From: Promethearchaeota archaeon
GTDB taxonomy: Archaea; Asgardarchaeota; Lokiarchaeia; Sigyniarchaeales; SOKP01
Length of the DNA stretch: 64,000 nucleotides
NCBI GenBank assembly: GCA_048940925.1
Contig: JBHLOC010000008.1
Location: forward strand, 32,001 to 96,000
Reading direction: 5' to 3'
Both the position numbers and the translations under genes were made by a program. This document shows positions 19,261 to 58,128 of the stretch, one piece after another. Below the pieces are notes generated by a model. The model made no database searches and was not told where the DNA came from. It saw only the letters and a program-made list of their open reading frames with translations. Positions within the stretch are counted from its first letter, which is position 1, and each line of letters opens with the position of its first letter.

Positions 19261-20895
19261 ATGCTATCTGACGACTATTTATTTTCTGACATTGGAATTG
19301 ATTCAATTGGTTTTTATGCTCCAAGGAACTACGTTAGCTTGAAAGAACTCGCATTGGAAAGAAAAGTTGATCCTGCTAAGTATGAGAAAGGACTTCTATC
19401 AAAAGAAATGCGCGTTCCTGAAGTGGATGAAGATATTATTTCTCTTGGATTGAAAGCAGGATATAGCGCATTACAACGAGGTAATATTCCTCCTAAAACC
19501 ATTGATGCATTATTTGTTGGTACTGAAACAGAAGTATATGCTGCGAAGAGTATATCAAATATCTTCGCTGAGATGTTGAATATTTCTCCCAATTCTTTAA
19601 CTCAAGATATCTATAATGCCTGTGCAGGTGGTACACTAGCAATTCTTAATGCAATTGCAATGATTGAAAAAGAAATAATTAACAAAGCTCTTATTATAAG
19701 CGCTGACATCTCATCATATCACCTAGGCTCTCCAGGTGAACCAACACAAGGCTCGGGAGCTATCGCTATGGTAATCTCAAAGGATCCTCGTATAGCATCA
19801 TTCAGTAAAAAGTTTGGAAGGATCTCCGGAAATGTCAATGATTTTTTTAGACCCCCAAATGATAAAAATGCAAGAGCCTTTGGTCAATATTCTCAAGATA
19901 GTTATATTGATTTCCAATTAAAGGCTTACGATGATTTAATTGATAATGCTGGAGATTTTCATGCAGATTTCTATACATTTCATGCTCCTTTTAGTAAATT
20001 ACCTTTAAAAATTATGCAACAAATCATATTGAAACGTTGGATAAAACACATAAGTGATTTACCAAAATTTGAACGAAATAAATTTAGATCCTCAATTTTA
20101 AAGAAAATTGATTCATTTTTACATGATGTAACTGTTTTACCAGAATATATTTACTTAAAACTAAATGAAAGAGGATTTTCTTCCTCCACACTGGAACGAC
20201 TTTCAATGTGGGTGAATACAAATGTTAAAGCACGAGTACTTCCTCAATTACGAGTTCCTATGCATTTTGGTAATATGTACAATGCGAGTGTTTGGGCACA
20301 AATAATTTTTCTTCTAGAGAATCATGTTCATGCTAATGATATAATTTATTTTGGATCTTACGGCTCCGGAGCAACATGTATTTCAGGTTTATTAAAAGTC
20401 CAAGATGATTACAATGATGTTGTCCAAAATGGTCCGAAAATAAATGATTTCATTCATTTAAAGAAGAAGAAATCAGTATTAGAATATGAACTTATAAAAA
20501 ACGGAGATGTAAAGCCAATAGTTTTATTAGGAAAGATTGCTGAGCACGAACAAAACAATCATAGGGGTTTTACACTCCATTTTTGTGATGAGGGATGTAT
20601 TATTCCGAACATAAAAGGATTAGATCGTTGTCCTAAAGGTCATACAGGCTACCATGAAAGATTTTTTCCACTTTTTGCTAAACTGACCTCTGACCCTATT
20701 GCTCAAAATGATATTGAGGACCTTAGTTATCTAAATAAAGGCCTTGTAAGAGTAGCAAGTAATGTAAGTAAGGGTAGCTCTCTAGAATATGAAATAAGGA
20801 GAGTTGAAAGAGAATTTGAAGAAAATCTCAATGCTAAAGGGCTCTTAAACTGGACTCCTTTCTATATTAATCTCCCAAATCACCATGTTTACTAG
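19261..20895 (+). CDS. mvaS: HMG-CoA synthase with C-terminal DUF35-like extension
   Basis: VGTE, NACAGGT (catalytic Cys), EPTQGSGA, FHAPF, GNMYNAS and SYGSG. Confidence 0.9.
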   Translation: MLSDDYLFSDIGIDSIGFYAPRNYVSLKELALERKVDPAKYEKGLLSKEMRVPEVDEDIISLGLKAGYSALQRGNIPPKTIDALFVGTETEVYAAKSISNIFAEMLNISPNSLTQDIYNACAGGTLAILNAIAMIEKEIINKALIISADISSYHLGSPGEPTQGSGAIAMVISKDPRIASFSKKFGRISGNVNDFFRPPNDKNARAFGQYSQDSYIDFQLKAYDDLIDNAGDFHADFYTFHAPFSKLPLKIMQQIILKRWIKHISDLPKFERNKFRSSILKKIDSFLHDVTVLPEYIYLKLNERGFSSSTLERLSMWVNTNVKARVLPQLRVPMHFGNMYNASVWAQIIFLLENHVHANDIIYFGSYGSGATCISGLLKVQDDYNDVVQNGPKINDFIHLKKKKSVLEYELIKNGDVKPIVLLGKIAEHEQNNHRGFTLHFCDEGCIIPNIKGLDRCPKGHTGYHERFFPLFAKLTSDPIAQNDIEDLSYLNKGLVRVASNVSKGSSLEYEIRRVEREFEENLNAKGLLNWTPFYINLPNHHVY

Positions 20896-20997
20896 AATTT
20901 ATCCAGTTTTTTACCTGTATTGAATCTACAAAAGGTAAAGTAAAGTGTAAGAAAATTTAGACAAAACTTATTAAATTTTTGAATTTATGAAAAATTA

Positions 20998-22278
20998 ATG
21001 AAAGATTTTCATTCAGATATTTCTGGGTTTTATAAATTATCAATTGATGAACGTCTAAAATTATTATCTGAACTTATTAATTTAAGTCAAGATGAAATTG
21101 AAATACTAAAGACATTAGGTTATTTTACATCAACTCAGATTGATACATTAATCGAGAATGTAGTAGGAAGCTATCAGTTACCATTTGGTCTTGCCTTTAA
21201 CTTTAGAATTAATAACAGAGACTATATCATACCCATGGTTATTGAAGAACCTTCGGTGGTGGCAGCTGCTTCAAATGCTGCTAAAATGGCCCGAGAGCAT
21301 GGTGGATTTCACTCAGAGGAGGTAAAATCAGTAATGATCTCTCAGATTCAAATAACTCAAATTCAAGATATTGAGTATGTACGACAGCAAATTTTAAATA
21401 ACAAAGACCAAATCTTAAAAATCGCCAACGAACAAGATCCTTTATTAAATAAATTAGGTGGTGGTGCACTTGATCTTGAACTTCGAGAGTTAGATACAAA
21501 TAGAGGTAAGATGATGATAATTCATTTATTGGTTAATGTTCTAGATGCCATGGGCGCCAACATAGTTAACACAATGGCAGAAGCTATAAGCCCTTTTATT
21601 GAAGAAATCACAGAAGGAAAAATTTATTTGCGAATTTTATCGAATCTAGCTACTCATCGAATTGCTAAGAGTAAAGCAACTTTTGATAAAGAGTTATTAG
21701 GGGGAGAAGAAGTAGTGGAAGGAATACTAAATGCTTATGAATTTGCTTTAGCTGATCCATATCGTGCGACCACTCATAATAAAGGAATAATGAATGGTAT
21801 TATTGCCTTAACATTAGCAACTGGAAATGATACTCGCGCTATTGAATCAGGTGCTCATGCATTTGCCTCTTTGAGTGGAAAGTACTCTCCGTTAACTAAA
21901 TTCGGATTAGATTCAAAAGGAAATTTAGTTGGAGAAATTGAGCTACCTCTTGCTTTAGGAATTGTTGGAGGTATGACAAAAATACATCCTATGGCACGAC
22001 TAGCTTTAAAAATATTAAATGTACAAAGTGCGAATGAGCTCTCACAGGTGGGTGCTGCTCTTGGTTTGGCACAAAATGTGGCAGCTTTAAGAGCCTTAGC
22101 AGCAGAAGGTATTCAAAAGGGTCATATGGCACTCCATTCTCGTAATATTGCAAAAGTCGCAGGAGTACCTGATAAATTAGTAGAGAGAGTTGCCAAAAAA
22201 ATGATAGAAGAGAAAAAAATAAGAGTTGATTATGCAAGAGAAATTTTACAAAAAATAAATGATGATGAAAACCTTTAG
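20998..22278 (+). CDS. mvaA: HMG-CoA reductase, class II
   Basis: ENVVG, EEPSVVAAAS, DAMGAN, THNKGIMNG, GNDTRA and GIQKGHMALH. Confidence 0.95.
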   Translation: MKDFHSDISGFYKLSIDERLKLLSELINLSQDEIEILKTLGYFTSTQIDTLIENVVGSYQLPFGLAFNFRINNRDYIIPMVIEEPSVVAAASNAAKMAREHGGFHSEEVKSVMISQIQITQIQDIEYVRQQILNNKDQILKIANEQDPLLNKLGGGALDLELRELDTNRGKMMIIHLLVNVLDAMGANIVNTMAEAISPFIEEITEGKIYLRILSNLATHRIAKSKATFDKELLGGEEVVEGILNAYEFALADPYRATTHNKGIMNGIIALTLATGNDTRAIESGAHAFASLSGKYSPLTKFGLDSKGNLVGEIELPLALGIVGGMTKIHPMARLALKILNVQSANELSQVGAALGLAQNVAALRALAAEGIQKGHMALHSRNIAKVAGVPDKLVERVAKKMIEEKKIRVDYAREILQKINDDENL

Positions 22279-22359
22279 TTTTATAAAAAGTGGTTCTGTA
22301 ACTCCTCTAAGAAAAACCACAATTATTATTCATATTATCAAGATAACCATGTATAGAAG

Positions 22360-23670
22360 ATGAGTTATATGGGATTTAGAGAATATATAAATAAAATAGA
22401 TAAAGAAGGAATACTCCGAAAGGTGGATGTAGAAGTTTCCAAAAGACTAGAAATTGCTGGTATTTTGAAAGAGATTGAACCAACTCCCGTAATATTTAAT
22501 AATATAAGAGAATCTGATTTTCGTGTTGTAGGTAATGTGTTCTGTACTAAGAATGTTATTGCTTCATATTTCGGTGTGACTCCTGCAGATCTCATACCAA
22601 TGCTTTCAAAAGCAATAACAGAACGTTCTGAACCGGAAATCGTATCTAATGCCCCTTGTCAAGAAGTGATCGAATCAAGTGTAGATTTAGATAAAATACC
22701 CATTTTATTTCATTGTGAAAAAGATGGTGGAAACTACATTAGTTCTGCAGTTGTTGTAACCAGAGATCCGGATTATGGGCAAAACTTAGATTTTCATCGA
22801 GCAATGCAATATTCTAAAGACAAATTTGCTACTCGAATAGTCAAAGGACGCCACTTTTATAAATTTTTAGAAAAAAATGGCGAAGTAGAAGTTGCATATT
22901 GTGTAGGTAATACCCCCAACATTCTGATAGCCGGAGCTACGTCTGTAGATATTGGTGTTGATGAATTACACATTGCTAATGCACTAGAACCAATTAAAGT
23001 TGTAAAGGCAAATTCAGTGGATCTTATAATACCCGCAGAAGCTGAGTTTGTATTAGAAGGTCGTGTTTACTTTGAAGAAAGACATGTTGAAGGTCCTTTT
23101 ATTGATCTGACTGAAACATATGATGTAATTAGAGAAGAACCTATTTTTGAAGTTAAGAGAATTACTCATAGAAAAGATGCGATTTGGCAAGCCTTATTAC
23201 CAGGAGCACTTGAACATAAAATATTAATGGGTATGCCTAGGGAACCCACTATTTTCAATAAAGTAAATGAAGCAGGAGTTAAGTGTTTGGATGTAAATAT
23301 TAGTCCTGGTGGGTCTTCTTGGTTGCATGCAATAGTCCAAATTGATAAAAAATCAGAAGAAGATGGAAGAAAGGCAATTGAAGGAACTTTTGCAGGGCAT
23401 ACAAGCTGTAAACATGCTTTTATTGTCGATAAAGATATTAATATCTATGATCCTTTATCAGTAGAATGGGCGATGGCGACTCGTTTTCAAGGAGATACTA
23501 GAATGATTGTGAAAGATAAAGAACCAGGTAGCAGTTTAGACCCAAGCGCGGAACCTGGAACAAAAATGACCACAAAAATTGGTTTTGATTTAACAAAACC
23601 TTTGGTTGTGAAAGGGAAAAGTTTTGACATTGCAGAGTTTCCTAAAGTAGATATTAATAAATATTTTTAA
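22360..23670 (+). CDS. UbiD-family decarboxylase, probable trans-anhydromevalonate phosphate decarboxylase
   Basis: EGPF, VDKDINI, WAMATRFQ and SSLDPS; located in the MVA operon next to the aconitase X subunits. Confidence 0.85.
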   Translation: MSYMGFREYINKIDKEGILRKVDVEVSKRLEIAGILKEIEPTPVIFNNIRESDFRVVGNVFCTKNVIASYFGVTPADLIPMLSKAITERSEPEIVSNAPCQEVIESSVDLDKIPILFHCEKDGGNYISSAVVVTRDPDYGQNLDFHRAMQYSKDKFATRIVKGRHFYKFLEKNGEVEVAYCVGNTPNILIAGATSVDIGVDELHIANALEPIKVVKANSVDLIIPAEAEFVLEGRVYFEERHVEGPFIDLTETYDVIREEPIFEVKRITHRKDAIWQALLPGALEHKILMGMPREPTIFNKVNEAGVKCLDVNISPGGSSWLHAIVQIDKKSEEDGRKAIEGTFAGHTSCKHAFIVDKDINIYDPLSVEWAMATRFQGDTRMIVKDKEPGSSLDPSAEPGTKMTTKIGFDLTKPLVVKGKSFDIAEFPKVDINKYF

Positions 23671-23688
23671 TATTGGAGTAGTTGGAAA

Positions 23689-24882
23689 ATGAAATTAACA
23701 TCTGAAGAACAGGATATGTTAGAGGGCAAGTATGGAAAAGCTGCTAAAAAATCAATGGAAATTTTAACCACACTGGGGGAAATATTTGATGCAGAGGATA
23801 TGATCGATATAGTTGGTGTTCAGATAGCAGGCGTCTCTTATGATAATCTTGGTGAAGCAGGATTAGAATTTTTGAGTGAAATGGCAGAAGATGGTAAAAT
23901 TCGCGTTTTAACCACCTTAAATCCTGCTGGAATGGATCGTGAAAATTGGCAAAGGTTAGGTATTGATGAAGAATTTGCCAAAAACCAAAATCGTGCTATA
24001 GATGCATTTGCTAAAATGGGTATAATTACCACCTGTTCTTGTACTCCATACTTAATTGGAATTAGCCCACATTATGGACAACATCTCGCTTGGGCAGAGA
24101 GTAGTGCTGTATGTTATGCAAATTCTGTTATTGGCGCTCGAACTAATCGTGAAGGAGGGCCAAGCGCATTGGCATCAGCATTAACAGGAAAAACACCTAG
24201 ATATGGTTATCACTTGGATGAAAATCGCCACGGGCAAGTTTTAATCAAAGTGAATACTTCTGTTAATGGAACTGATGAATTTGGAGTTCTTGGAAAAATT
24301 ATTGGTGATAAATTGGGGGAATTAGGCAAAAAAATTCCCTATATAATTGGAATTCTAGCAGCTACTGTTGAAGAACTTAAGTCCTTTTGTGCATCTGTTG
24401 CTACTTATGGTGGAACAGCTTTGTTTCATATGGAGGGTATTACTCCCGAGTCTGAAAAATATCCCAAACCAAGTGATACCGTTTTTGAAATAAATCAATC
24501 TGATTTAGAAAAAACGCGAACTGAACTTATTGATGAAGATAGCGAAATTGATTTTGTCAGTATTGGTTGTCCTCACGCCTCAATCCATGAAATCGCAACA
24601 ATCGCAAATTTATTAGAAGGCAAGAAAGTAAAGAAAGAATTTTGGATAACTACTGCTCGACCAACAAAGAAAATTGCTGATGAAGCTGGGTATTCCAAAA
24701 TTATTGAAGAAGCAGGAGCGAAATTTGCAGCAGATACATGTTGTGTAGTAGCTCCTATTAAAGGACGTTTTAAAGGAATTATGGTAGATTCAGCTAAAGC
24801 ATGTTATTATGGTCGTGCAAGAAATAAATTTAAAGTAAAAATTGGCACAGTTGAAGAATGTGTTGAGGAGGCAACAAAATGA
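23689..24882 (+). CDS. Phosphomevalonate dehydratase large subunit (aconitase X)
   Basis: TTLNP, CSCTPY, WAESSA, GARTNREG, GCPHAS, DTC and DSAK. Confidence 0.88.
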   Translation: MKLTSEEQDMLEGKYGKAAKKSMEILTTLGEIFDAEDMIDIVGVQIAGVSYDNLGEAGLEFLSEMAEDGKIRVLTTLNPAGMDRENWQRLGIDEEFAKNQNRAIDAFAKMGIITTCSCTPYLIGISPHYGQHLAWAESSAVCYANSVIGARTNREGGPSALASALTGKTPRYGYHLDENRHGQVLIKVNTSVNGTDEFGVLGKIIGDKLGELGKKIPYIIGILAATVEELKSFCASVATYGGTALFHMEGITPESEKYPKPSDTVFEINQSDLEKTRTELIDEDSEIDFVSIGCPHASIHEIATIANLLEGKKVKKEFWITTARPTKKIADEAGYSKIIEEAGAKFAADTCCVVAPIKGRFKGIMVDSAKACYYGRARNKFKVKIGTVEECVEEATK

Positions 24883-25271
24883 AGTTACAAGGAAGAAAAA
24901 TATATAATGGAATAGTTGAGGCAGAAGCTCTAGTAACTAAGGATGGTATTTCATTTTATGGAGGGGTTGATCCTGATACTGGTAAGGTAGTCGAAGTTGG
25001 TCATGAACTTGAAGGTCAATCAGTCTCAGGAAAGGTCTTAGTATTTCCAACCGGTAAAGGTTCCACAGTAGGATCATATACAATGTATCGAATGATGAAA
25101 AACAATACTGCACCAGCTGCTATCGTAAATGAACAAATAGATACCATTATAGCCGTCGGGTGTATAATTAGTGAAATTCCTTGTGTGGACAAAATTAATA
25201 TTGATGACATAAAAACAGGTCAAAAACTCGTTGTCAATGGTTCAGATGGAACAATTGAATTAATAGATTAG
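24879..25271 (+). CDS. Phosphomevalonate dehydratase small subunit (DUF126 swiveling domain)
   Basis: ISFYGGVDP and KGSTVGSY; ATGA overlap with the large subunit. Confidence 0.88.
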   Translation: MKLQGRKIYNGIVEAEALVTKDGISFYGGVDPDTGKVVEVGHELEGQSVSGKVLVFPTGKGSTVGSYTMYRMMKNNTAPAAIVNEQIDTIIAVGCIISEIPCVDKINIDDIKTGQKLVVNGSDGTIELID

Positions 25272-25287
25272 TTTTATTTTGATATTA

Positions 25288-26298
25288 ATGAAATCTTCTG
25301 CAATTGCCCATTCAAATATAGCGTTGATAAAATATTGGGGTCATTGGGATAAAGTTTCCCCCGAATTAAATATACCTTTAAATGATAGCGTAAGCATGAC
25401 AAAATATGGGCTATCAGAAAATACTCACTTACAAGCTCATACAACAATTGAATTCTCAGAGAATTTCAAAGAAAATCAGGCAATATTAAATAATAACCTT
25501 TTGAAAGGAAGAGATTTAGAAAGAATATTAAAAATCATAAATCCATTAAAAAAACTGAAAAAAATTGATTACAATTTTAAAATGGTGAGTTTTAATGATT
25601 TTCCCACCCAAGCAGGTCTAGCATCTTCCGCAGCTGGGTTTGCTGCACTTACCATTGCCACTGCAAAAGCTTTGGATTTGGATCTAGCCCAAAAAGAATT
25701 ATCAACATTTGCTAGATTAGGTTCTGGTTCTGCAGCACGCTCAATTCATGGTGGGTTTGTATATTGGCATCGTGGTTTCTCCCATGAGACTTCTTATACT
25801 GAGCAGATATGTAGTTCAGAACACTTTGATATAAATGCAGTTATTGCAATAGTTGATGAAGGAAGAAAGGATGTCACCTCTGACCTTGGACATGAATTAG
25901 CAAAGACAAGTATATTTAATGCAATTCGAGTTAAAAAATCGCATGAAGAAGCTAAAGAAATTAAGAGTGCAATTCTAGACGATGATTTTAAGAAAGTTGG
26001 AATGATTGCTGAGAAAAATTGCTTATATATGCATGCTGTAATGATGACTTCTGAACCCGCTTTATTTTATTGGAATCCACTTACTTTAAAAGTAATAAAG
26101 AAAGTGTTGTATATACGAAAATCAGAAAAAATAGATTGCTTCTTTACAATCGATGCAGGTCCAAATGTACATTGTTTTTGCAGACCAGAAAATATTGATT
26201 GTATTCAAAAAATGCTAGGATCTATAGAAGGTATTGAAAAAACTATCCTTATAAAACCTGCTAATGATTCTTATCCGACAAATGAACATTTGTTTTAA
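25288..26298 (+). CDS. mvaD: (Di)phosphomevalonate decarboxylase family GHMP protein
   Basis: NIALIKYWG, FPTQAGLASSAAG, ARLGSGSAARS and TIDAGPNVH. Confidence 0.88.
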   Translation: MKSSAIAHSNIALIKYWGHWDKVSPELNIPLNDSVSMTKYGLSENTHLQAHTTIEFSENFKENQAILNNNLLKGRDLERILKIINPLKKLKKIDYNFKMVSFNDFPTQAGLASSAAGFAALTIATAKALDLDLAQKELSTFARLGSGSAARSIHGGFVYWHRGFSHETSYTEQICSSEHFDINAVIAIVDEGRKDVTSDLGHELAKTSIFNAIRVKKSHEEAKEIKSAILDDDFKKVGMIAEKNCLYMHAVMMTSEPALFYWNPLTLKVIKKVLYIRKSEKIDCFFTIDAGPNVHCFCRPENIDCIQKMLGSIEGIEKTILIKPANDSYPTNEHLF

Positions 26299-26441
26299 AA
26301 ATATACATAATTAGTATCTCTCTGATCCAACTGTTCAAATAAAATTAAAAATTATCAAAATAAGTTATAGGTTAAGAAATTTAAATAGATTTGAATATTT
26401 TCAAATTTTATCATATCATACAAAATTAATTGGTGAAAAAT

Positions 26442-27408
26442 TTGGGAACTGGAAAAGGCTTTGGAAAGACCATACTTTTTGGCGAAATTTTATCCCTCTT
26501 TCAGGTATAAACGCAAACATTTTGTAGTGTATGGCTTACCAGCAATTGCTTCAGCATTAAGTTCTTTTACTACAGCTAAAGTAAAAGTTGTTAAAGGAAA
26601 TGGTTGGGTGGTTGATGATCAAAGACCTGCTACACCTGGATATAAGGAACAAAAATATAATGATGCTATGCAATCTATTGTAAATGTGATTCAGCATTTA
26701 AACATTGATTCGGAGAATCAAAAACTTGAAATAACTTTTGCTGGTGACTTAATAGCTGCGAGTGGTGTCGGTGCATCGGCAGCTCAATGTACTTCTTTAG
26801 CTCGTGCAATAAATAATACTTTTAATCTAAACCTAAATAATGAAGAGATTAACGAAGCAGCATATGAAGGAGAGAAAGCATATCATGGGACGCCATCAGG
26901 AATTGATAATACAGCTTCTACATATGGTGGTTTGATTTGGTTCATTAAGAATTTAAGCGGTGGAAAGAATAAGATGGATTTACTACAATCACCAAAAAGG
27001 ATCCCCCTTGTGATCGGGAATACTGGAATAACTGCCTCGACTACAGAGGTTGTTTCGGATGTAAGAAGCCAAAAAGAAGAAAATCCAGAAAAGTATGAGA
27101 AAATCTTTAATGACTATAAAATATTAGCAACTAAAGCAAAGGATGCGTTATTAAGGGGTGATATCAATGAGATTGGAAGACTTATGAATCAAAATCATAA
27201 ATTATTACAAGATATAACCGTATCTGGAGAATTAAATGATAAATTAGTGGATGTAGCACTTAAAAATGGTGCTGTTGGTGCAAAAATGACTGGAACTGGA
27301 CGTGGAGGCTTGATAATAGCATTAGCTGAAAATGAAGAAATACAAGGGCAAATAGCAAATGCAATCAAGAGAGAGGGATATGATGCTTGGGAAACTATGA
27401 TTGGATGA
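26442..27408 (+). CDS. mvk: Mevalonate kinase, split by a 31-nt BHB-type intron (exons 26442-26486 and 26518-27408; 311 aa spliced)
   Basis: TTG start 5 nt after SD GGTGA gives MGTGKGFGKTILFGE, which joins HFVVYGLPAIA. Downstream motifs: GVGASAA, HGTPSGIDN and GAKMTGTGRGG. Confidence 0.9.
26487..26517 (+). other. Putative BHB-type mRNA intron in mvk (31 nt)
   Basis: GGCG-AA|A-TTTTATCCCT-CTTTC-AGGTATAAA-CGCA-AA|C. Removal restores GGC GAA CAT TTT (GEHF); the unspliced frame hits TAA at 26508-26510. Confidence 0.8.
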
Positions 27409-27457: not shown

Positions 27458-28162
27458 ATGAATGATCTCGACCTTGATATTCGACCAATCACTATGGACG
27501 AATGGTTACCAGATCGTTGTCTCGGAGGTGGCAAACCAATTGATCCTTCCAAACTCACACTTCAAGCTGGCTGCACCAGTCTTTGCTTGTTCTATACCGC
27601 TACCGCACTAGGGATATCACGTCAAGAATCACTTACTCAACCAGCAGATGAAATTAAGAAAAAGGCTGATCGAGAACCTGCATGTCGTAGCATGTTGGTT
27701 GAATTATATCGTGAAACAATCGAAAAACATGGAGGTTGTGGTTTTGTTGCTTGGTATGAAGGTAAAATCGTAGGGTACCATAATTTCTTCCCTCGGAATA
27801 TTGCACGCAGGATTAAGTTCTTTGGTTGGGGAGAAGATATTGACAGTTCTAAACTAACACTCATACACAATTGCATTACCCATATACGTGGAGATTACCG
27901 TCGTAAGAAGATTGGAACACGACTTGCCCGGACATCCTTGACATGGGCGAAAGAAAACGGATGGGAACGGTTTGAGGTACATCTTGTACTCCCGGACGTT
28001 GAAAATGGTTTCCGCAATGAGCAAAAGTCATGTCGTACCTTCTGGGAAAAACTGGGATTGACGGTATTTAGAACATTTTCTTCAGATGAAGAAACACAAA
28101 AAGTTTATGGTGTACCAGTCCGACACTCTATGGCGGTTGATCTGACAACGTGGAAACCCTGA
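27458..28162 (+). CDS. GNAT-family acetyltransferase, probably horizontally acquired
   Basis: YRRKKIGTRL acetyl-CoA motif and FWEKLG; visibly more GC-rich than neighbours. Confidence 0.7.
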   Translation: MNDLDLDIRPITMDEWLPDRCLGGGKPIDPSKLTLQAGCTSLCLFYTATALGISRQESLTQPADEIKKKADREPACRSMLVELYRETIEKHGGCGFVAWYEGKIVGYHNFFPRNIARRIKFFGWGEDIDSSKLTLIHNCITHIRGDYRRKKIGTRLARTSLTWAKENGWERFEVHLVLPDVENGFRNEQKSCRTFWEKLGLTVFRTFSSDEETQKVYGVPVRHSMAVDLTTWKP

Positions 28163-28301
28163 AACTCCCAACATTAATAATATAAATAATAATTGAAAGA
28201 AATTAAATCTAAATATTACAGGTTTTATGTAATATCTTTGATTAAAAAATTTGTGGATTTATAGCTTAACAAAGAAGACCTGTTAAATTATTCCTTATTA
28301 A

Positions 28302-28513
28302 GATATAGGAGGATTTGCTTATAACTTCCTTCGTTCTGCATGGAAAGACCGAAAAGAAAATTCCATTTCTAATACTGTTAAAGAAATAAAAATTTTAAAA
28401 AATGAATTAAGATCTCGTGTATGGTTAATGAATTTAGATAAGATTGAAAAATTAATAGGTAGACGAGATAAATATGTTATTTTTGGGGTTTATATAGGTG
28501 GTTTCATCAATAG
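28302..28513 (+). pseudogene. Remnant of the type 2 IPP isomerase C-terminus
   Basis: Translates DIGGFAYNFLRSAWKD..VKEIKILKNELRSRVWLMN.. then shifts frame to LYRWFHQ*. This parallels NIGGFAFKFLKTAWKD..IKEIKTLKQELRSSLWLMN..LYQWINQ* in 35172-37070. Confidence 0.85.
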
Positions 28514-28515
28514 CT

Positions 28516-29067
28516 CTATACTGATCCCCATCTTTTTATATTGGTTTCTAAACCTATCTGGTCAAGTATTCTTCCTACAGTATGTTCAATTAATTCAGTA
28601 ACATCTTTAGGTTTAATATAGTAAGAAGGAACAGGTGGAGCGATTATAACTCCTAACCTCGCCAGTTTTAGCATATTTTCTAAATGAATTGCATTTAATG
28701 GACTTTCTCTTACAACTAATATGAGTTTTCTTTGTTCTTTTATCATTACATCTGCTGCCCGAGTAATCAAATTATCTGCATATCCGTTTGCAATTGCTGC
28801 TAATGTTTTCATTGAACAAGGCACTATAATCATATTCTCTATTTTGTATGAGCCACTCGCTGGTGGAGCAGCCAAATCGTCTACTGTGTAATTCTTTGAA
28901 GCTAAATTACGGATCTTAGAAATAGAGTAATCTGTTTCAAGCTCAATTATTTTTTGAGCACTATCAGATATAATTAATTCTCGGTTAATTTCATTTTCTT
29001 TAAGGATTTCTAATAATCGTATGGCAATTTGAACACCAGTTGCCCCTGAAATCGCAATTAACACCAT
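28516..29067 (-). CDS. ubiX: Flavin prenyltransferase
   Basis: AISGATG, ASGS, PCSMKTLAAIA, RAADV.IKE and RESPL..IHLEN. Confidence 0.95.
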   Translation of the reverse strand: MVLIAISGATGVQIAIRLLEILKENEINRELIISDSAQKIIELETDYSISKIRNLASKNYTVDDLAAPPASGSYKIENMIIVPCSMKTLAAIANGYADNLITRAADVMIKEQRKLILVVRESPLNAIHLENMLKLARLGVIIAPPVPSYYIKPKDVTELIEHTVGRILDQIGLETNIKRWGSV

Positions 29068-29319
29068 AAGTTTGAAGTAGACCTTAATTTTTGTCTAATA
29101 AAATGTTTCAATTATTTTTAGGTTTTTCTAATTTTTATTATAATTCCGAAATCTAAAATGATAATCAACCTAATAAAATTTTATAATATTTAATTTAAAA
29201 CAAAAAATAATGTCATTTTAAGCTTTATAATAAAATTTAGTAATTCTCCAATCTCTATATGCATTAGTAAATGTTCTTCTTTTTCCTTTACATAAATAGA
29301 ATTATTTAGCTATAATAAA

Positions 29320-30687
29320 GTGAAATTATTTATTATTACAAATAACCAAATTGAGGAAATTCAAAAACTAATAAAAATAGAAATTGACTCCTATTACTCC
29401 AAATGTAAAAAACCTAATAGTTATTCTCAGATAGCTAAAGATCTCGGATTTAGCCCTCCGACTATTCGTAAATATGCAAAGAGATATTTAATTAGAGAAT
29501 ATGGAGAAAATGGTGGTTTAGAATTATACAATCAATACAAAAAGTTAAGTCGTAAAACACCAAATAAATGGACTTATGAGTATTTACAGGAATTAGCAAA
29601 AAGAAGAGGATTAGAAGAAAATAACATTGAAGGAAAGTTAATTACAACTAAAGATGAATTTTTCGAATCTATAAAAAGTCAATATCCAAGTGGTGTTAAG
29701 TTAAAATGGTGGTGTGGAAAAAAAAATCATGACCCATGGGAAACTTCTGGGAGTGAGGTAAAACGTAGTTGGTGTCCTAGATGTTTTAGAGAAAGAGTGA
29801 GCTTTTCATATAGTTATCTACATGCTTTAGCAAAAAAAAGAGGTTTTGAAGAAACTCGAATCGAAGGGATACTTATTACAAATAGGAAAGAATTCGCAAG
29901 ACTAATAAAAAAAGGTATCGAGCCAAGTAAAATAAAATTAAAATGGTGTTGTTGCATAAAAGATCATAATCCTTGGGAAGCTTCAGCTAAAGATATAAAA
30001 GGATATAACTCAAGAAAAGGATCTTGGTGCCCTAGATGTGCTATAGAAAAGAATAGTCTTTCATATGAAGACCTACGAGCTCTAGCCAAGAAAAGGGGCA
30101 TTGAAGAGACAGGAATAAAAGGAACGCTTATTACTAGTAAGCAAAAGTTCGAGAAATTAGCAAAAAGAGGTACTGAGCCAAGTAAAACAAAACTAAAGTG
30201 GTGGTGCTGTAATAAAGATCATGAACCATGGAAAGCTACTCCTAATAGCATAAGCAGAGGGACTTGGTGTCCGTATTGTTCACAAGGTAAGTATGAAAGG
30301 ATTTGTCGCCGTTTTTTCCAGATAATATTTAAAGAGAAATTTCGGAAAATTTCGTTATCAAATTTAATTAAGGATAGCGATATAAAAATGCACTTAGATG
30401 GGTATGCTAAAGTAAACATTCATGGTAAATTGATAAAACTAGCCTTTGAATACAATGGATATCAACATTACATATGGCCCAATGTGTACCATAACACTGT
30501 ACAAAAATTCCTTGAACAGCAAGACCGAGATATTCTAAAAAGAAAAATATGTGAAGAAAATGGAATCATTCTAATCGAGTTTCCATATAAGATAAGTCCT
30601 AGGATGAAAGAACCTGAAAAAATAAAGAATTTTATCATTAGTGGATTTGAGAATAAAACAGGTATAAAATTACCAAAATTACAATAA
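29320..30687 (+). CDS. Free-standing putative endonuclease: HTH, three Zn-ribbon repeats and a Vsr/DUF559-like nuclease domain
   Basis: SQIAKDLGFSPPTIRKY; three KLKW.C...H.PW...WCP.C units; HLDGY..AFEYNGYQHY..RD..KRKICEENGIILIEFPY. Confidence 0.75.
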   Translation: MKLFIITNNQIEEIQKLIKIEIDSYYSKCKKPNSYSQIAKDLGFSPPTIRKYAKRYLIREYGENGGLELYNQYKKLSRKTPNKWTYEYLQELAKRRGLEENNIEGKLITTKDEFFESIKSQYPSGVKLKWWCGKKNHDPWETSGSEVKRSWCPRCFRERVSFSYSYLHALAKKRGFEETRIEGILITNRKEFARLIKKGIEPSKIKLKWCCCIKDHNPWEASAKDIKGYNSRKGSWCPRCAIEKNSLSYEDLRALAKKRGIEETGIKGTLITSKQKFEKLAKRGTEPSKTKLKWWCCNKDHEPWKATPNSISRGTWCPYCSQGKYERICRRFFQIIFKEKFRKISLSNLIKDSDIKMHLDGYAKVNIHGKLIKLAFEYNGYQHYIWPNVYHNTVQKFLEQQDRDILKRKICEENGIILIEFPYKISPRMKEPEKIKNFIISGFENKTGIKLPKLQ

Positions 30688-30741
30688 CATAACTGTTCAA
30701 ACTAGTAAATCTATTTTTAAGGTGTGATAGAAATGCAAGAA

Positions 30742-31848
30742 TTAAATAAGTCCCCTTGCGACAATTTGCGATGACCTATATTTTTCCCACAGTGATAAAA
30801 ATTTCTTCAATGTCTCATCACTTGTATAAATTCTATTTCTTGCCTCTCTTTTAGCTTTTAATATTTTAAGAAACCTTTTATCTAAATTTCGGATATAATA
30901 ATCGCCTAATTTGTCTAATCTATCTCTTTTTTCCCCTAGTTTGATAGTATCTATCGCAATCTCACCTGACATCATTGCATAAGGGATCCCTTTACCACTT
31001 ATTGGATCTACAAATCCTCCAGCATCCCCTACAGCAAACACATTTTCTTTGTATAGCTGTTGTTTTAATCCAACTGGAATCAAATGAGGTTTGAAAATTT
31101 CCAGTGTTGCATCTTTTAAAGCTTGTTTTACGAAGGGGAGTGAAATGAATTTATCAAACTCTTTTCTTGAATTTTTTATTAAATTAATTTGATTACCCCA
31201 ACCTACGGTAATAGTTTCCGCTTTTGGGAATAACCATGAATAACCAATAGGTATTAAATTCTCAATTCCAAAAAACAAATGTACAGTGTCATCCCCGAGA
31301 ACTTCAGCAATTTTTGATTTAGTGCTTTTCATTTCTTTAGTGATCGTTAAAATAATATTAGTATTGTTAAAATTCGGCCAATTTAGTGATTTCAACGTTG
31401 GGGATGTAACCCCATCAGCGGCTATTACATATTTAGAAGTATATGTATCTTTTTTAGTCGTTATAAGGTATGAATCCCCTTTTCTATCTATACTAATTAA
31501 TGGTTCGTCTTCTTTTAGAATTGCTCCGCAATCTACAGCCCAATCTGTTAAAAATTTATCAAATGTGCTTCGCCAAATGACAGCACCTTTACCTTTTTTA
31601 GAGTAATCTTCTCCATCAACATGATGTAGTTCTAAAGATTCTATTATACGACTAATTTTTTCTTCAGGATAATCAATTTCTTCTACTAATTCCCAAGCTA
31701 TAGCCCCTCCACATGCCTTATATCGACCTTCTTTATTTAATTTCTCTTTCTCAAGTATACATGTTGAATATCCATTATCTGCTGCAATCTTTCCTGCAAC
31801 TGATCCTCCTGGACCTGCCCCAACAACCAAAATATCAAAATTGTTCAT
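30742..31848 (-). CDS. Geranylgeranyl reductase-family FAD oxidoreductase
   Basis: DILVVGAGPGGS, KACGG, AADG, GYSWLFPK and VGDAGGFVDPISGKGI. Confidence 0.85.
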   Translation of the reverse strand: MNNFDILVVGAGPGGSVAGKIAADNGYSTCILEKEKLNKEGRYKACGGAIAWELVEEIDYPEEKISRIIESLELHHVDGEDYSKKGKGAVIWRSTFDKFLTDWAVDCGAILKEDEPLISIDRKGDSYLITTKKDTYTSKYVIAADGVTSPTLKSLNWPNFNNTNIILTITKEMKSTKSKIAEVLGDDTVHLFFGIENLIPIGYSWLFPKAETITVGWGNQINLIKNSRKEFDKFISLPFVKQALKDATLEIFKPHLIPVGLKQQLYKENVFAVGDAGGFVDPISGKGIPYAMMSGEIAIDTIKLGEKRDRLDKLGDYYIRNLDKRFLKILKAKREARNRIYTSDETLKKFLSLWEKYRSSQIVARGLI

Positions 31849-31953
31849 AAGGATTTTCTCTATTTTTATGAGATTCTTATAAGAAAGTGAAGCTGTATTA
31901 AAAATATTATACAATAATACATACTTATTTTGAAATTTCTATTTATAAAAAAA

Positions 31954-32760
31954 CTAATCTTTTTGCTCAGTAAGAAAAGAAAGCAAAATATTGTTGAATT
32001 CATCAGAATTTTCCATATTACTCATATGTCCTGCACCGCTGATTATTACTTTTTTCGCTCCCTTTATTCCAGAGCTAAGGATATTAGCATTTTCTTGAAA
32101 TTGCGGGATATCAAGTTCACCAACTATTATAAGGGTCGGTATGTTTATTTCACTTAGTCTTTTTTCAGGAGGAGGTCTCGGAGCGATAGCATTTGTTGCT
32201 TTAAGAAAGAATGCGCCTTGACCTTGCGCAACATGTCCATTCAATACCATTTCTTCCATCCTTTTTTTAACATTAGGAATCCTCATTGCCGGTTCAAAAA
32301 GAGGGTCACTCAACCAGTCTTTAAGGGCAGATTTCAAGTCTTGATTAATACCTTTCATAATATAGTTAAAAATTCGTTTATCGCATTCGCGTGAAGGATT
32401 AAAGGTGATGGCAGAGTCTGCAACGACTAATGAGTGCACCAATTCTGGATATTCTATCGTAAAAATGGTTGCTACATGCCCACCCATAGATAAACCCACA
32501 ACATGAGCGGAATCTATTTTTAAGGTTTCAAATAATCCCTTAAGATCATCTTCTTGTTTAAAGCGGTTGGAAACTCCTTCAGATCGACCATGACCCCTCT
32601 GATCGAATCGTATTACTTGGTAAGATTTAGCAAGCAAATCAAACTGGTCATTCCACATTCGATTATCAAGAGTAAAACCATGGATAAGAACCACAACTTC
32701 ACCCTCTCCTTTTTTTTCATAAAATAATTCGGGTTTTTTATTTCCTTCATCGCTACTCAT
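31954..32760 (-). CDS. Alpha/beta hydrolase
   Basis: LIHG, DQRGHGRS, GLSMGG nucleophile elbow, GELD and AGH; start taken at MSSDEG. Confidence 0.88.
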   Translation of the reverse strand: MSSDEGNKKPELFYEKKGEGEVVVLIHGFTLDNRMWNDQFDLLAKSYQVIRFDQRGHGRSEGVSNRFKQEDDLKGLFETLKIDSAHVVGLSMGGHVATIFTIEYPELVHSLVVADSAITFNPSRECDKRIFNYIMKGINQDLKSALKDWLSDPLFEPAMRIPNVKKRMEEMVLNGHVAQGQGAFFLKATNAIAPRPPPEKRLSEINIPTLIIVGELDIPQFQENANILSSGIKGAKKVIISGAGHMSNMENSDEFNNILLSFLTEQKD

Positions 32761-32847
32761 AGTAATACAGCTCTTAGAAAGATTGTAATTATAGAAACCT
32801 GTATGGTTTTTAAATTTTAGCTTCAGAGTATATTTAAACATTTTCAT

Positions 32848-34521
32848 TTATGAAAATTTAAGTATTGCTCCTTTCGAAGCAGAAGAGACAAGATGTCTGT
32901 ATTTTAAAAGTGCTTTGCTTCTAATATCTTTTTCAAAGGGTTTCCATTTTTTTAATCTTTCTTGAATTTCTTCATTTGAAATCTCTATGTCAAGTCTTCT
33001 ATTAGGTATATCAATCTTGATTAAATCCCCATCTCTCACTAAAGCAATTGGTCCTCCGACGTATGCTTCTGGAGTCACATGACCAATACAAGGACCTGAA
33101 GTATACCCTGAAAAACGTCCATCAGTAATCAATGCAACTTTATCTAATTTGGGTTTGCCTACTAAAGTCATAGTTACAGCAAGTAATTCAGGCATACCAG
33201 GACCTCCTTTCGGACCCTCATACCGAACAATAAGTATAGAATTATTTTGAATTTGTTCAGATGTTAGAGCGTCAAGAACATCTTGTTCTGAATTAAAACA
33301 TAATGCTGGTCCATCGAATTTCAACATATGCTTATTTTTAATTGCCGATTGCTTAACAATAGCCCCTTCTGGTGCTAGAGTGCCCTTTAATACTACAGTT
33401 CCTCCTTCAGGGAAAATAGGATTAGTCAAAGGTCGTATTATATTTTCATCTAGAACTTCAATTTTTCTTATAATTTTTCCAATAGTTTTTCCAGAAACAG
33501 TTAAACAATCTAAATGAAGAAAGTCTTTTAATCTACTCATTACAGCAGGGATCCCTCCTGCTTTATATAAATCTGGAGTACCAAAATCTCCCGAGGGAGC
33601 AATATTTGCAATGGTTGGAATTTTTTTATTATATTCATTAAATATTTCTAAATCAAGATCTATCCCCATCTCATTTGCAATTGCAGGAAGATGTAATGTT
33701 GAGTTCGTTGATCCTCCAATTGCTAAATCTACTATTACAACATTTTCTAAAGAATCTTTGGTCATGATTTGAGATGGAGTTATGTTTTCTTTCAATAACT
33801 CAATTATTCTTTTTCCTGAATTTTTAGCAATCATATATTTCATTTGAGTCATTGCTGGGATAGTAGCAGCGTTTGGTAATGTCATTCCAAACGCTTCCAT
33901 TAAACATTGAGTAGTATTTGCAGTACCCATGGCTTCACATGCTCCATATGTGGCACAAGTTATGCATCCAAACTTATGAGTAAAATCTTCATAAACATCC
34001 GTTGTAATACCTTTATAACCTGGCATGAATCTTACTTCATATAAATTAGATCCTCCTGGAACACATATAGTTGGGATATCTAATCGTACCGCTGCCATTA
34101 GAATTGCCGGGTTGATTTTATCGCAACTAGATAAAGTAACCATAGCATCTAATCGATGTGCATCGGCCATTAATTCAATTGAATCAACTATTACCTCTCT
34201 ATGGGGTAAAATAGAACGCATACCTACATTTCCCATAGCTATTCCATCACACGCTCCAATGGTACAGAACTCAAAGGGTACTCCTCCTGCTTCTATGATT
34301 CCATACTTTACTGCTTCGGCAAGAGTTCTTAAATGTTTATGACCTGGATTGAGCTCATTCCAAGTATTTACTACTCCTATGAAAGGTTTTTTATCAATAT
34401 CTTGATCATCTAAACCTAAAGCCTTTAATAATTCTACTTTACCATTTCTAAAAGGTGTCTTATCAATACCATCAAAAAGGCTTTTACTTCTTATTTTTAA
34501 GTTAACTTCTTCTTCATCCAT
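32848..34521 (-). CDS. ilvD: Dihydroxy-acid dehydratase family
   Basis: CDGIAMG, CDKINP, GTANT, GGSTN, RYEGPKGGPGMPE and TDGRFSG. Confidence 0.9.
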   Translation of the reverse strand: MDEEEVNLKIRSKSLFDGIDKTPFRNGKVELLKALGLDDQDIDKKPFIGVVNTWNELNPGHKHLRTLAEAVKYGIIEAGGVPFEFCTIGACDGIAMGNVGMRSILPHREVIVDSIELMADAHRLDAMVTLSSCDKINPAILMAAVRLDIPTICVPGGSNLYEVRFMPGYKGITTDVYEDFTHKFGCITCATYGACEAMGTANTTQCLMEAFGMTLPNAATIPAMTQMKYMIAKNSGKRIIELLKENITPSQIMTKDSLENVVIVDLAIGGSTNSTLHLPAIANEMGIDLDLEIFNEYNKKIPTIANIAPSGDFGTPDLYKAGGIPAVMSRLKDFLHLDCLTVSGKTIGKIIRKIEVLDENIIRPLTNPIFPEGGTVVLKGTLAPEGAIVKQSAIKNKHMLKFDGPALCFNSEQDVLDALTSEQIQNNSILIVRYEGPKGGPGMPELLAVTMTLVGKPKLDKVALITDGRFSGYTSGPCIGHVTPEAYVGGPIALVRDGDLIKIDIPNRRLDIEISNEEIQERLKKWKPFEKDIRSKALLKYRHLVSSASKGAILKFS

Positions 34522-34765
34522 TTCCTATTCCTCTTTTTTTAATAATAAGTATGAAATAAACCAGTTCTAATTTTACTAATACTTTTCTTTTTAAATATCA
34601 TATCAAATCTAAAATTAGTTTATCTTCAAATTGAAAAGATATTTAAAAGATAAAAAAAGAAACTATTTTTCTTATTATTATAAATCAATTTAATATCATA
34701 AACAATAAAATTTTTCATATGAAATACTAAACTGGCTTTAAATCTTGATTTTTTTTTAAAATAAC

Positions 34766-35017
34766 TTAAGATTAGAAGATGGAATTGGAAAATATATTAG
34801 CATTATTTATATTCAAAAAAATAGTCAAAAATTTAAGATTCACCTGGAAACATTTGAAATTAGGAATTTCTTAACTGGTATAAGTAAACATGAAACTGCT
34901 ACAATGATTAATTATGATGAAGATTCAAGTTTTCTGTCATATCACGTTGCAAGTTTTTACTTTAGACTTCTTAGAGTTTTTATTGAATATAACTATAACT
35001 TTAGTGAAAAATCATGA
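34766..35017 (+). pseudogene. Possible start-less gene remnant
   Basis: 83 sense codons (LRLEDG..IIYI..LRVFIEYNYNF) with a stop just upstream and no start codon at the 5' end; loosely similar to the fragment at 8771-8944. Confidence 0.3.
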
Positions 35018-35171
35018 ACATTTTTAAAAATTGAATATAATGAAGTCTCCTCGCTAGAATCTAATTAATGTAAAATTGGTCCTTGGAAAATTAAAACCTT
35101 TAAATTCTAAAAAAAACATTCACTTTTAATGAATAAAAGATTTGTAAGATTTTTCTCATAAATTTATCAGG

Positions 35172-37070
35172 ATGCGATTAAAATTGGATGATATCCTCAT
35201 TTTAAAGTTAGGTGGAAGCTTATTAACTGACAAATCTGAACCATTTTCTATAAGGGAACAAATTTTAAATGATTCAATTCAACAAATTGTTGATTGTCGT
35301 AAGAAATTAGTTTTGATTCATGGTGGTGGATCATTTGGCCATCCAGTTGCAAGAGAATATAATATTTCTAATGGTATAAATCCAGCTATTCAAAATCAAT
35401 TATTTGGGCTCACAAAAACCCATGATGTAATGAACCAACTTAATTCAAAAATTATTGAGACTTTTTTAAAGAAAGATTTTCCAGCAATCTCAATTCAACC
35501 ATCAAGTATTTTTATGATAAGATCAAAAAAAATAACTATTCAAGCAATCGAAGTAATTGAAGCAGCATTGGAGTTAGAGATTTTGCCTGTTTTGTATGGA
35601 GATATAATTTTAGATTCAGATGGTTCTTTTTCAATTATCTCGGGAGATCAAATCATTTTGGAAATTTGCAAGAAATTAAAAAACTTCAGAATTAAGAAAG
35701 TGATATTTACAATTGAAAAAGATGGAGTTTTCATAAAGGATACAAATAATAATATAAAATTAGCAACAAAAATTGATTCAAATACTATAAGTAGTTTAAA
35801 TTTAGCAAATCTTGAAGATAAAATTGATGTTACGGGGGGTATTAAAAAAAAACTTGAAATTGTAGAAAAAATTTGCAATTTAGGCATACCTGTTCAAATA
35901 ATAAACGGTTTAGAAAACAAGAATATCCTTAAAGTATTAAATAATCAACATATAGAATGTACTAGTTTTAAACCAATATTGAAGAGAGAAATTGAAAGTA
36001 AATTGTATAATAGAAAGATAGAACATATAAGAATACCTTTAAAATATAATGTACAACATTCAAAGAATCATTTTGATGAAATTAATTTAATACATCATGC
36101 TTTACCTGAACATGAATTAGATGATATTAACCTTTCAGTTGATTTCTTTGATAAGAACATATCTGCTCCTATATGCATTGCAGCAATTACAGGAGGACAT
36201 GAGATTTCTAAAGCAATTAATAACATTTTAGCAAACGCTGCTAATTTAGAGAATATAATTATGAGTGTTGGGAGCCAAAGAATAGGAGTAGAAGATCCTA
36301 ATACAATTGATTCATTTAAAATTGTACGTGATGTTGCACCTGATATTCCAATAATAGGAAATTTAGGAATTGGACAGATTTGTTCTTCGAAGTTTAATAT
36401 TGATTATTTCTTTAAGTGTATTGAAATGATTAATGCGGATGTTATGGCTATACATTTCAATGCACTACATGAACTTGTCCAAACTGATGGTAATATTTCC
36501 TATAAAAATTTTGAAGAAATTTTTAAAGAAATTAGAAAGAAAAGTAAAATTCCAATTATAGCTAAAGAAGTTGGAACAGGATTTAATAAAGATCTAGCAT
36601 TAAAGCTTGATTTATTAGGATTTGATGGTTTTGACGTTGGAGGAACAGGTGGTACTAGTTTTGCTGCAATAGAATCTTTTCGGGATGCAACAAGTTATGA
36701 AGCATATTCTCGTAAAATTGCTGACACATTTCGTGAATGGGGAATTCCAACACCAGTTAGTATTGTGAATGTTAGAGAAGTATCTAAAAAGTTAATAATC
36801 GCAACTGGTGGTTTACGCTCTGGGATTGATATTGCCAAAGCTATTGTATTAGGTGCAAACATTGGTGGTTTTGCCTTTAAATTTCTAAAAACAGCATGGA
36901 AGGATTACAAACACAATACTTTAGCAAATTCAATCAAAGAAATAAAAACTTTAAAGCAAGAATTAAGATCTTCCTTATGGTTAATGAATATTAAAAATAT
37001 TGGTGATCTTAGAAGTAAAACTGGTAAGGCTGTTTTATTGGGTGAATTATATCAATGGATAAATCAATAG
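35172..37070 (+). CDS. Fused isopentenyl phosphate kinase / type 2 IPP isomerase
   Basis: N-half: KLGGSLLTDK, HGGGSFGH, SGD and DVTGG. C-half: RKIEHI, AAITGG, VGSQR, HFNALHE, KEVGTG, GGTSF and ATGGLRSG. Confidence 0.92.
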   Translation: MRLKLDDILILKLGGSLLTDKSEPFSIREQILNDSIQQIVDCRKKLVLIHGGGSFGHPVAREYNISNGINPAIQNQLFGLTKTHDVMNQLNSKIIETFLKKDFPAISIQPSSIFMIRSKKITIQAIEVIEAALELEILPVLYGDIILDSDGSFSIISGDQIILEICKKLKNFRIKKVIFTIEKDGVFIKDTNNNIKLATKIDSNTISSLNLANLEDKIDVTGGIKKKLEIVEKICNLGIPVQIINGLENKNILKVLNNQHIECTSFKPILKREIESKLYNRKIEHIRIPLKYNVQHSKNHFDEINLIHHALPEHELDDINLSVDFFDKNISAPICIAAITGGHEISKAINNILANAANLENIIMSVGSQRIGVEDPNTIDSFKIVRDVAPDIPIIGNLGIGQICSSKFNIDYFFKCIEMINADVMAIHFNALHELVQTDGNISYKNFEEIFKEIRKKSKIPIIAKEVGTGFNKDLALKLDLLGFDGFDVGGTGGTSFAAIESFRDATSYEAYSRKIADTFREWGIPTPVSIVNVREVSKKLIIATGGLRSGIDIAKAIVLGANIGGFAFKFLKTAWKDYKHNTLANSIKEIKTLKQELRSSLWLMNIKNIGDLRSKTGKAVLLGELYQWINQ

Positions 37071-56986: not shown

Positions 56987-57066
56987 TAAATCCACACCCG
57001 AGCAGAGTTTTCATCAAATAACTTTCCATAAGAGGTTTTTTTATTTGATTCATTATGATGGATTTA
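56987..57066 (-). promoter_or_regulatory. Eukaryote-like SECIS element
   Basis: Minus strand: helix I TAAATCCA/TGGATTTA, core ATGA...GA, perfect 9-bp helix II ATCAAATAA/TTATTTGAT, apical AAAAA with a CC/GG mini-stem. Starts 5 nt after the TAG at 57072. Confidence 0.8.
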
Positions 57067-57071
57067 CTTTA

Positions 57072-58021
57072 CTAGCAACCATCCGATTGCTGGAGATTGA
57101 TTTTTATAAATGCTTCCTCTTGAAAGTTGCGTTGTTCTGATTTGACAGATCTATTTACTTGATGTAAATGTTTCATAGCGTCATTTTTTCCTTCTTTAAT
57201 GTTTTTAATTAGTTCTTCTTTACTAAATCCGCCAGAAATTACTAATGCTGTTTGAAAGGACTGTTCAGGTTCTAAAGTTTTAAATTCAATCTGTAATGCA
57301 GATAAAATTTCATCAGGGCCCTCATGCAAAGTATTAGAAAGATTCAATCTATTTTGATCGATTTTGAAATCTTTTGTTAAACATGACTCGTAATTTGTCG
57401 ATCTTGAAATGGGTGAAAACCCACCGTATAAACCAGTATCATCATATTGGTAAATTATATCATTTTCCTCATCGTAACCTGAAAGATCATTGTTATAACC
57501 TTCAAGTCCATTTATATCAAAATCAAACACAAAATACATTGAAAAGTCTTTCATGTTATAATCCGAGATATTTTTCATTGTAAAGAACGTGCTGATATAA
57601 GGAACCTGAGGTGGATTGAATATATCCTTATACACACGAATAAATTCCTTTTTTTTCAGATTAATAGCAGGTAACTTTTTTTCTCTAACCAATTTCTTTA
57701 GATATTCTGTAATGTTAAAATCTAAAGTAATTCTGCTTATAACAGTGCCTTTACGGGTGTTAACTAAATTATAAATTGGTGTTGGTTCAATATTTCTTAG
57801 AATCACCGGAATAGTTCCAATTTTTTTTCCTTCTAGCTTAAAGCTAAACCACGGACCAGTAAATTCCTGCTCACTAAGATATATAAGATATTTTCCCTTG
57901 TATGTTAGTTCTTTAATTGAAAACCCCATGACATATCCAGCAGCATTTCTTGTTTCAAATTTTAATTAAAATTGAAGATTCAAGTCGCCAGTACATCATG
58001 CCAGTGAACCTTAAGGACTAT
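57072..58021 (-). CDS. Putative novel selenoprotein, split by a 32-nt BHB intron (exons 58021-57979 and 57946-57072; 305 aa, Sec14)
   Basis: SD AGGAGGT then ATA start gives MVLKVHWHDVLAT-UGA, which joins NAAGYVMGFSIKE... and runs into the 285-aa ORF. 3' SECIS present; C-terminus SDGC. Confidence 0.7.
57947..57978 (-). other. Putative BHB mRNA intron adjacent to the Sec codon (32 nt)
   Basis: CTTG-AA|T-CTTCAATTTT-AATT-AAAATTTGAAA-CAAG-AA|A: perfect 4-bp central helix and two 3-nt bulges. Contains TAA in both the exon-1 and exon-2 frames. Confidence 0.75.
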
Positions 58022-58128
58022 TTTTTTTCTAACCTCCTATGAATTGTTTTAAATTTTTTATTTATATCAGATAATTTACCAATTATTAAAAAGAGATAGG
58101 ATTCATAAAAAAGTTTGTAATGAAAAGA

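Follow-up and report, generated by a model that had tools for sequence, protein, structure and literature searches.

In 2020, the known bulge-helix-bulge (BHB) introns of messenger RNAs comprised that of cbf5 and one case in an untranslated region (UTR) (PMC7714728). The cbf5 intron is found in the pre-mRNA of Desulfurococcales and Sulfolobales, where its splicing was demonstrated by cDNA, and cleavage of a BHB motif takes place between the second and third residues of each bulge (Watanabe, 2002; Yokobori, 2009; PMC2738675). In Asgard archaea, non-canonical tRNA introns have been gained repeatedly, and a two-subunit tRNA-splicing endonuclease (EndA) was found in 44 of 60 genomes (bioRxiv 10.64898/2026.10.13.758758). 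The present analysis concerns a 31-nucleotide (nt) insert in mvk, the mevalonate kinase (MVK) gene of a Promethearchaeota archaeon (a Loki-type Asgard, labelled G000 in comparisons with its relatives), within a window of 64,000 nt (GCA_048940925.1, contig JBHLOC010000008.1, positions 32,001 to 96,000), whose numbering is used below. With a probability of about nine in ten, as judged from sequence, this insert is a relaxed (HBh'-type) BHB intron that must be removed from the mRNA.

The insert (26487-26517) separates Glu15 from His16 in GHMP motif 1. Exon 1, which runs from a TTG at 26442 to 26486 and reads MGTGKGFGKTILFGE, ends in ...GKTILFGE, and HFVVYG picks up at 26518 in a different frame, confirming the original prediction that the motif GK.IL.GEH..VYG is split between GE and HF across two frames. 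Left unspliced, the frame ends after 22 amino acids (aa) at TAA 26508-26510. Deleting the 31 nt produces the spliced junction that had been predicted and a product of 311 aa, the same length as intronless orthologues. Excision of 26485-26515, 26486-26516 or 26487-26517 would yield an identical mRNA in this genome, and where a relative's insert ends in AT or AG, GE|H is preserved only by the equivalent of the last register. The elements of the gene and of its predicted fold are as follows.

26432-26436, + strand: Shine-Dalgarno (SD)-like GGTGA, 5 nt upstream of the TTG start, kept in 12 of 12 TTG-start relatives.
26442-26486, + strand: first exon of mvk (15 codons), which supplies Lys9 and Glu15 of GHMP motif 1 (aligned to Lys18 and Glu24 of Leishmania MVK).
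26470-26475 (extending to 26464), + strand: 5' arm CCATAC of the distal exon-exon helix; 96-98% of alignment cells are paired, and intron-bearing genes have their synonymous codons fixed here.
26481-26484, + strand: exon strand GGCG of the central helix; a C-G pair becomes U-A in G003, G068, G073 and G144.
26485-26487, + strand: 5' bulge AAA; predicted cut at 26486/26487 by the BHB rule.
26487-26517, + strand: predicted intron, 31 nt, made up of 1 nt, a hairpin at 26488-26511 (loop 26498-26502), the central-helix strand and 2 nt; it holds TAA 26508-26510.
26512-26515, + strand: intron strand CGCA of the central helix; it has one G.A mismatch in this genome, and G.U pairs occur in 4 of 17 and in 4 of 8 sequences (the two alignments described below).
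26516-26518, + strand: 3' bulge AAC; predicted cut at 26517/26518, the junction needed for coding.
26518-27408, + strand: mvk exon 2, 296 codons and stop, first residue His16; 215 bits on TIGR00549, dN/dS about 0.09-0.12.
26529-26534 (extending to 26540), + strand: 3' arm GTATGG of the distal exon-exon helix; 96-98% of alignment cells paired.

The GGCG/CGCA helix with one G.A mismatch, the AAA and AAC bulges and the CCATAC/GTATGG stem all lie where the original prediction had placed them. Two 3-nt bulges and the intron-side helix h' are present, and the best register of the intron stem here leaves a 4-nt 5' bulge instead. The central helix has three pairs plus the G.A mismatch in this genome, and four pairs with a G.U in several relatives. 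Beside the 3' bulge, the exon-exon helix is limited to a single U-A pair followed by U.U mismatches, and the exon stem is distal. A canonical hBHBh' motif was rejected because helix h is not stacked on the 3' bulge and the central helix is imperfect. A group I, group II or spliceosomal intron was likewise rejected, given the 31-nt length, the ends AT...AA and an Rfam search of the insert that gave no match at or near threshold. The cut points set by the BHB rule coincide exactly with the excision that coding needs, and the insert shows every feature of a relaxed (HBh') BHB intron that can be tested in a sequence. In the proposed pathway, the last bases of exon 1 would pair with those of the intron, which would itself form a hairpin, and the distal exon-exon stem would join the flanks. 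A two-subunit EndA would then cleave each bulge behind its second base and the ligase RtcB would join the exons for translation of the 311-aa kinase, the unspliced RNA giving a 22-aa peptide.

The insert is widely shared. A search of 161 genomes of the class with a codon-degenerate pattern permitting inserts of 12-42 nt found it at the same site in 55, all from one family and spread over five genera, and although this range was allowed only lengths of 31, 30 and 28 nt occurred. The pattern may miss other families, whose motif codons differ; of two orthologues from another family readable at the site, one is intronless and the other ambiguous. In a first sample of genus orthologues, 18 of 27 carry the insert and 9 do not, and inserts of 30-31 nt occupy the site in nine JGI contigs. 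Recurrence at one site in 55 genomes and nine contigs excludes chance or assembly error. Within the first sample, the intronless genes all start with ATG, while all 12 TTG-start genes bear the intron and no longer overlap the AcnX small gene.

Pairing in the predicted fold is maintained across relatives. In 17 distinct sequences, the BHB model gave 91% paired positions compared to 39-47% in slid controls, and six pairs were altered on both sides, a count matched by none of 500 shuffles. Eight held-out genomes, unused in drawing the model, gave 92.5% compared to 40-46% in slid controls and four pairs altered on both sides, weaker against shuffles (11-34 of 500). Of the nine pairs of helix h', both-sided changes affect five in the 17 sequences and three in the held-out genomes. 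The most telling sign of covariation is an exon-intron change at a synonymous codon, in which Gly14 GGC becomes GGT together with intron CGC to CAC in the four genomes listed above (two genera); the same Gly14 change gives a U.G in G077. Mean identity among the 31-nt inserts is 76%. Around the junction, the share of identical codons is 0.77 in intron-bearing and 0.55 in intronless genes, compared to 0.58-0.59 (maximum 0.74) in the rest of the gene. These codons owe their fixity in part to shared descent of the flanks, and otherwise fit selection on the distal exon stem.

The closest solved structure to the mvk product is Leishmania MVK, in which Lys18 acts in catalysis while Glu24 and His25 give the substrate site its shape (PMC1851959). 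As these residues align with Lys9, Glu15 and His16 of the present gene, exon 1 is required; the Lys and Glu of motif 1 come from exon 1 alone. The NCBI record of the product is a 315-aa protein with a different N-terminus that lacks Lys9 and Glu15. Exon 2 by itself reaches 215 bits on TIGR00549 (cut-off 163), and its dN/dS is 0.123 within the intron-bearing group, 0.127 within the intronless one and 0.087 between this genome and the others; the motif codons of exon 1 vary synonymously only. By these measures mvk is under purifying selection like its intronless counterparts, in agreement with the earlier view that a dead gene is unlikely. A genome search with TIGR00549 for a second intact mvk returned a single locus, with no second one over the 163-bit cut-off. 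A mevalonate 3-kinase was looked for in the genome and not found. Both lower mevalonate routes encoded here begin at mevalonate 5-phosphate, according to a study of these routes that makes no mention of introns (PMC11052028).

The machinery for such splicing is encoded in the genome. There are two EndA paralogues (C58:74193-74789 and C18:73241-73843), of which the catalytic subunit retains Tyr139, His147 and Lys178 and the second lacks the catalytic Tyr and His, a division that suggests a two-subunit enzyme of catalytic and structural paralogues. Loop residues Lys56 and Arg58 of the catalytic subunit align with K44 and R46 of A. pernix, whose loop gives broad specificity (PMC3241643). EndA is thus predicted to be two-subunit and also broad in specificity, the latter being what the original prediction had expected from the relaxed motif. 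An RtcB gene is also present. Furthermore, tRNA-Ala(TGC) (C40:264811-264912, minus strand) has a 30-nt intron at the non-canonical position 32/33 with the same geometry as the mvk intron, so that this cell must already be able to process relaxed motifs. ARAGORN reported no more than 34 tRNAs for the genome, with many of them poorly scored, which suggests further interrupted tRNAs.

Inserts of similar shape occur in other genes of the genome. These are a 30-nt insert with an in-frame stop in EF-2 (C32:27895-27924, minus strand, locus L080), present in 14 genomes and absent in 15; an insert in PurA (C41:44583-44613, minus strand, locus L081), 30-32 nt long across genomes, present in 18 and absent in 12; and a 31-nt insert in Elp3 (C40:183124-183154, minus strand, locus L082), checked in this genome only. 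All three are BHB-shaped and their excision restores conserved motifs, and the EF-2 and PurA inserts covary and are patchy over the genus. When the genome was searched with a covariance model built on the mvk intron, that intron alone was matched, which indicates that the other introns are alike in shape rather than sequence. A scan for the motif combined with reading-frame joining showed no enrichment before energy filtering (120 candidates, compared to 115-121 in slid controls) and a modest excess at -12 kcal/mol or lower (7 compared to 1-2). Acceptance was therefore limited to candidates that restore a known protein motif, and these give no intron count for the genome as a whole. A 28-nt BHB-shaped candidate also lies near the start of a GH57 gene (C58:85083-85110, plus strand, locus L083). 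At 56987-58037 (minus strand) of the window, an SD and AUA-UGA layout was seen; the strict scan filter picked no intron there.

Several observations weigh against a spliced intron in mvk. The motif is non-canonical and is not the lowest-energy fold in this genome, the BHB-type fold lying at -17.2 kcal/mol and a competing fold at -19.4 kcal/mol, 2.2 kcal/mol apart. The pair probability of the central helix is 0.11 here, with a median of 0.33 over 26 genomes. As the genomes are related, the covariation counts overstate the number of independent events. The spliced-junction pattern had no match in JGI contigs, which are mostly DNA and uninformative on splicing. Finally, the next-best GHMP kinase of the genome (contig C73) scores 143 bits on TIGR00549, below the cut-off.

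That paralogue bears on the reading that mvk is a pseudogene, or makes an internally started truncated protein, with a divergent GHMP kinase as substitute. The 143-bit score and the NCBI 315-aa product with its other N-terminus speak for it; however, that product lacks two of the motif residues, a stop lies directly before His16 in five relatives, exon 2 is selected as in intronless genes, the motif codons in exon 1 show synonymous changes alone, and the paralogue lacks a GEH motif and has a galactokinase-like gene nearby. This reading is scarcely credible. Translational recoding, in which the ribosome would frameshift or hop over the hairpin with the RNA left uncut, has just as slender a chance. 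Ribosomal bypass is known from T4 gene 60, and the conserved hairpin and early stop would suit it. Inserts of 28, 30 and 31 nt, however, would demand different shifts, and those of 30 nt are in frame with stops. Moreover, exon-intron pairing is conserved, as a BHB requires. A bypass of the T4 gene 60 type was rejected because the landing triplet never equals the GAA take-off and a stop codon forms the three bases before His16 in G013, G022, G062, G068 and G077. Since the motif is relaxed and EndA activity is predicted from sequence, the RNA might instead be cut and rejoined by another system, or some members of the population might lose the insert by excision from their DNA. Against this highly improbable alternative, the cut points fit BHB geometry exactly and no Rfam family matches, and intronless alleles with intron-type flanks number zero in the JGI contigs, compared to nine with the insert.

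A fourth reading is compatible with a spliced intron and adds to it a regulatory switch that links mevalonate flux to EndA/RtcB activity. The early position, premature stop and imperfect central helix would suit a switch, a competing fold lies within about 2 kcal/mol in most genomes, and a similar role was suggested, untried, for cbf5 (PMC2738675). On the other hand, mvk lacks the intron in nine relatives from the genus that share the operon, and the G.A mismatch and competing fold differ between genomes. The presence of inserts also varies gene by gene over mvk, EF-2 and PurA: G023 has the EF-2 and PurA inserts and none in mvk, and many genomes show the opposite, a pattern that argues against a dedicated flux-control role. 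Given the patchy EF-2 and PurA inserts and the intronless relatives, introns that are tolerated, mobile or repeatedly lost fit better than a dedicated switch, which is unlikely. Of the original prediction, the relaxed BHB intron needed for MVK therefore stands, while splicing as a control of flux into membrane isoprenoids does not.

The history of this relaxed BHB intron was examined with a tree of mvk built without its first 30 codons. Intron-bearing genes do not form one clade, with at least three changes on supported branches (p-AU 0.0013). The intronless genes of G008, G010 and G023 are nested among intron-bearing ones, have outgroup-type flank codons and, over their first 60 nt, are nearer to distant intronless genes than to their intron-bearing sisters. 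Intron and flanks thus seem to move, or to be replaced, as a unit by recombination, in one direction or the other; the outgroup-type flank codons make loss by reverse transcription less likely. Most likely the intron is a tolerated passenger with a single origin in the family and its own flank codons, later spread or removed by recombination. No nuclease gene is shared within 9 kb of mvk in 15 other genomes. Positions 29320-30687 (plus strand) encode a protein of 455 aa in which treble-clef zinc-finger-like units recur and the C-terminus is putatively nuclease-like; its homologues, found in 19 of 53 genus genomes, lie away from mvk, none having been seen next to it. The linked nuclease of a homing-endonuclease-assisted intron is therefore lacking, and an unlinked helper may act instead. 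Taken together, it is somewhat more likely than not that splicing of essential mRNAs (mvk, EF-2, PurA and Elp3) by tRNA-splicing machinery is routine in one family of Loki-type Asgard archaea, whose introns lack open reading frames (ORFs) and move between lineages with short flank tracts. If true, protein-spliced introns independent of the spliceosome would have spread into coding genes among archaeal relatives of eukaryotes.

The mvk gene is the last of a mevalonate operon spanning 19261-27408, which bears out its earlier placement in a lipid-precursor operon. A promoter scan upstream of mvk did no better than chance.

19261-26298, + strand: upstream mevalonate operon, comprising HMG-CoA synthase, a reductase-like ORF (named from sequence and context only), UbiD, AcnX large, AcnX small and an MVD-family decarboxylase.

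In relatives, IPK-IDI directly follows mvk; here, that place is taken by a GNAT gene together with an orphan 3' fragment of IDI (28302-28487), and the whole IPK-IDI fusion lies at 35172-37070, the operon being rearranged within 27458-37070. In an Iainarchaeum metagenome-assembled genome (MAG; L003:2861 and 2980), the 5' end of mvk is duplicated over about 60 bp, as far as a few bases beyond the GE|H site, and a GC-rich spacer of 59 bp with two hairpins accompanies the duplication, which lies downstream of a small two-gene cassette; the GE|H motif may attract another kind of insertion. A Bathyarchaeia MAG (L001) has an intronless mvk and upstream genes that show 73% identity and are nested among Loki genes, compared to 30-48% for other Loki families. 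This likeness reflects either transfer or misbinning.

Within the literature searched (subscription papers lay outside coverage), no report of Asgard mRNA introns was found, and EndA-spliced mRNA introns were limited to cbf5 and one Haloferax UTR. A required mvk intron, together with the inserts in EF-2, PurA and Elp3, would mean that an Asgard family splices mRNAs routinely, and bears on how introns spread in coding genes without a spliceosome. Intron-bearing genes are also mis-annotated, as in the wrong N-terminus of the NCBI mvk product, which affects Asgard pathway and phylogenetic studies.

Non-spliceosomal mRNA splicing is known in eukaryotes from XBP1/HAC1, in which IRE1 cuts two stem-loops under stress control. 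Like XBP1/HAC1, the mvk intron is short and frameshifting and is predicted to depend on a protein endonuclease and a tRNA ligase; unlike it, the mvk intron shows no sign of regulation. RtcB has been linked to splicing of this type (PMC8718801). Among archaeal non-canonical tRNA introns, that of tRNA-Ala at 32/33 has the geometry and size of the mvk intron, while the Asgard tRNA-intron study covered tRNA genes only and its intron-rich classes exclude Lokiarchaeia (bioRxiv 10.64898/2026.10.13.758758). The BHB intron of Haloferax HVO_1309 is, like that predicted in mvk, an mRNA substrate of the splicing endonuclease (Schwarz, 2020; PMC7714728), but sits in the 5' UTR and leaves reading frames unbroken. 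The cbf5 gene is the only other archaeal coding sequence with EndA-type mRNA splicing that could be found in the literature searched. Like the cbf5 intron (16-44 nt), the mvk intron is short, lacks an ORF, interrupts a catalytic motif with an unconventional BHB, accompanies a hetero-oligomeric EndA (here predicted) and is absent from particular lineages. In contrast to cbf5, whose splicing was seen in cDNA and whose intron had one gain and few losses, the mvk intron is known from sequence, is interleaved on its gene tree, has counterparts of like shape in several other genes, and belongs to a lipid-precursor enzyme in a different phylum, the Asgard archaea.
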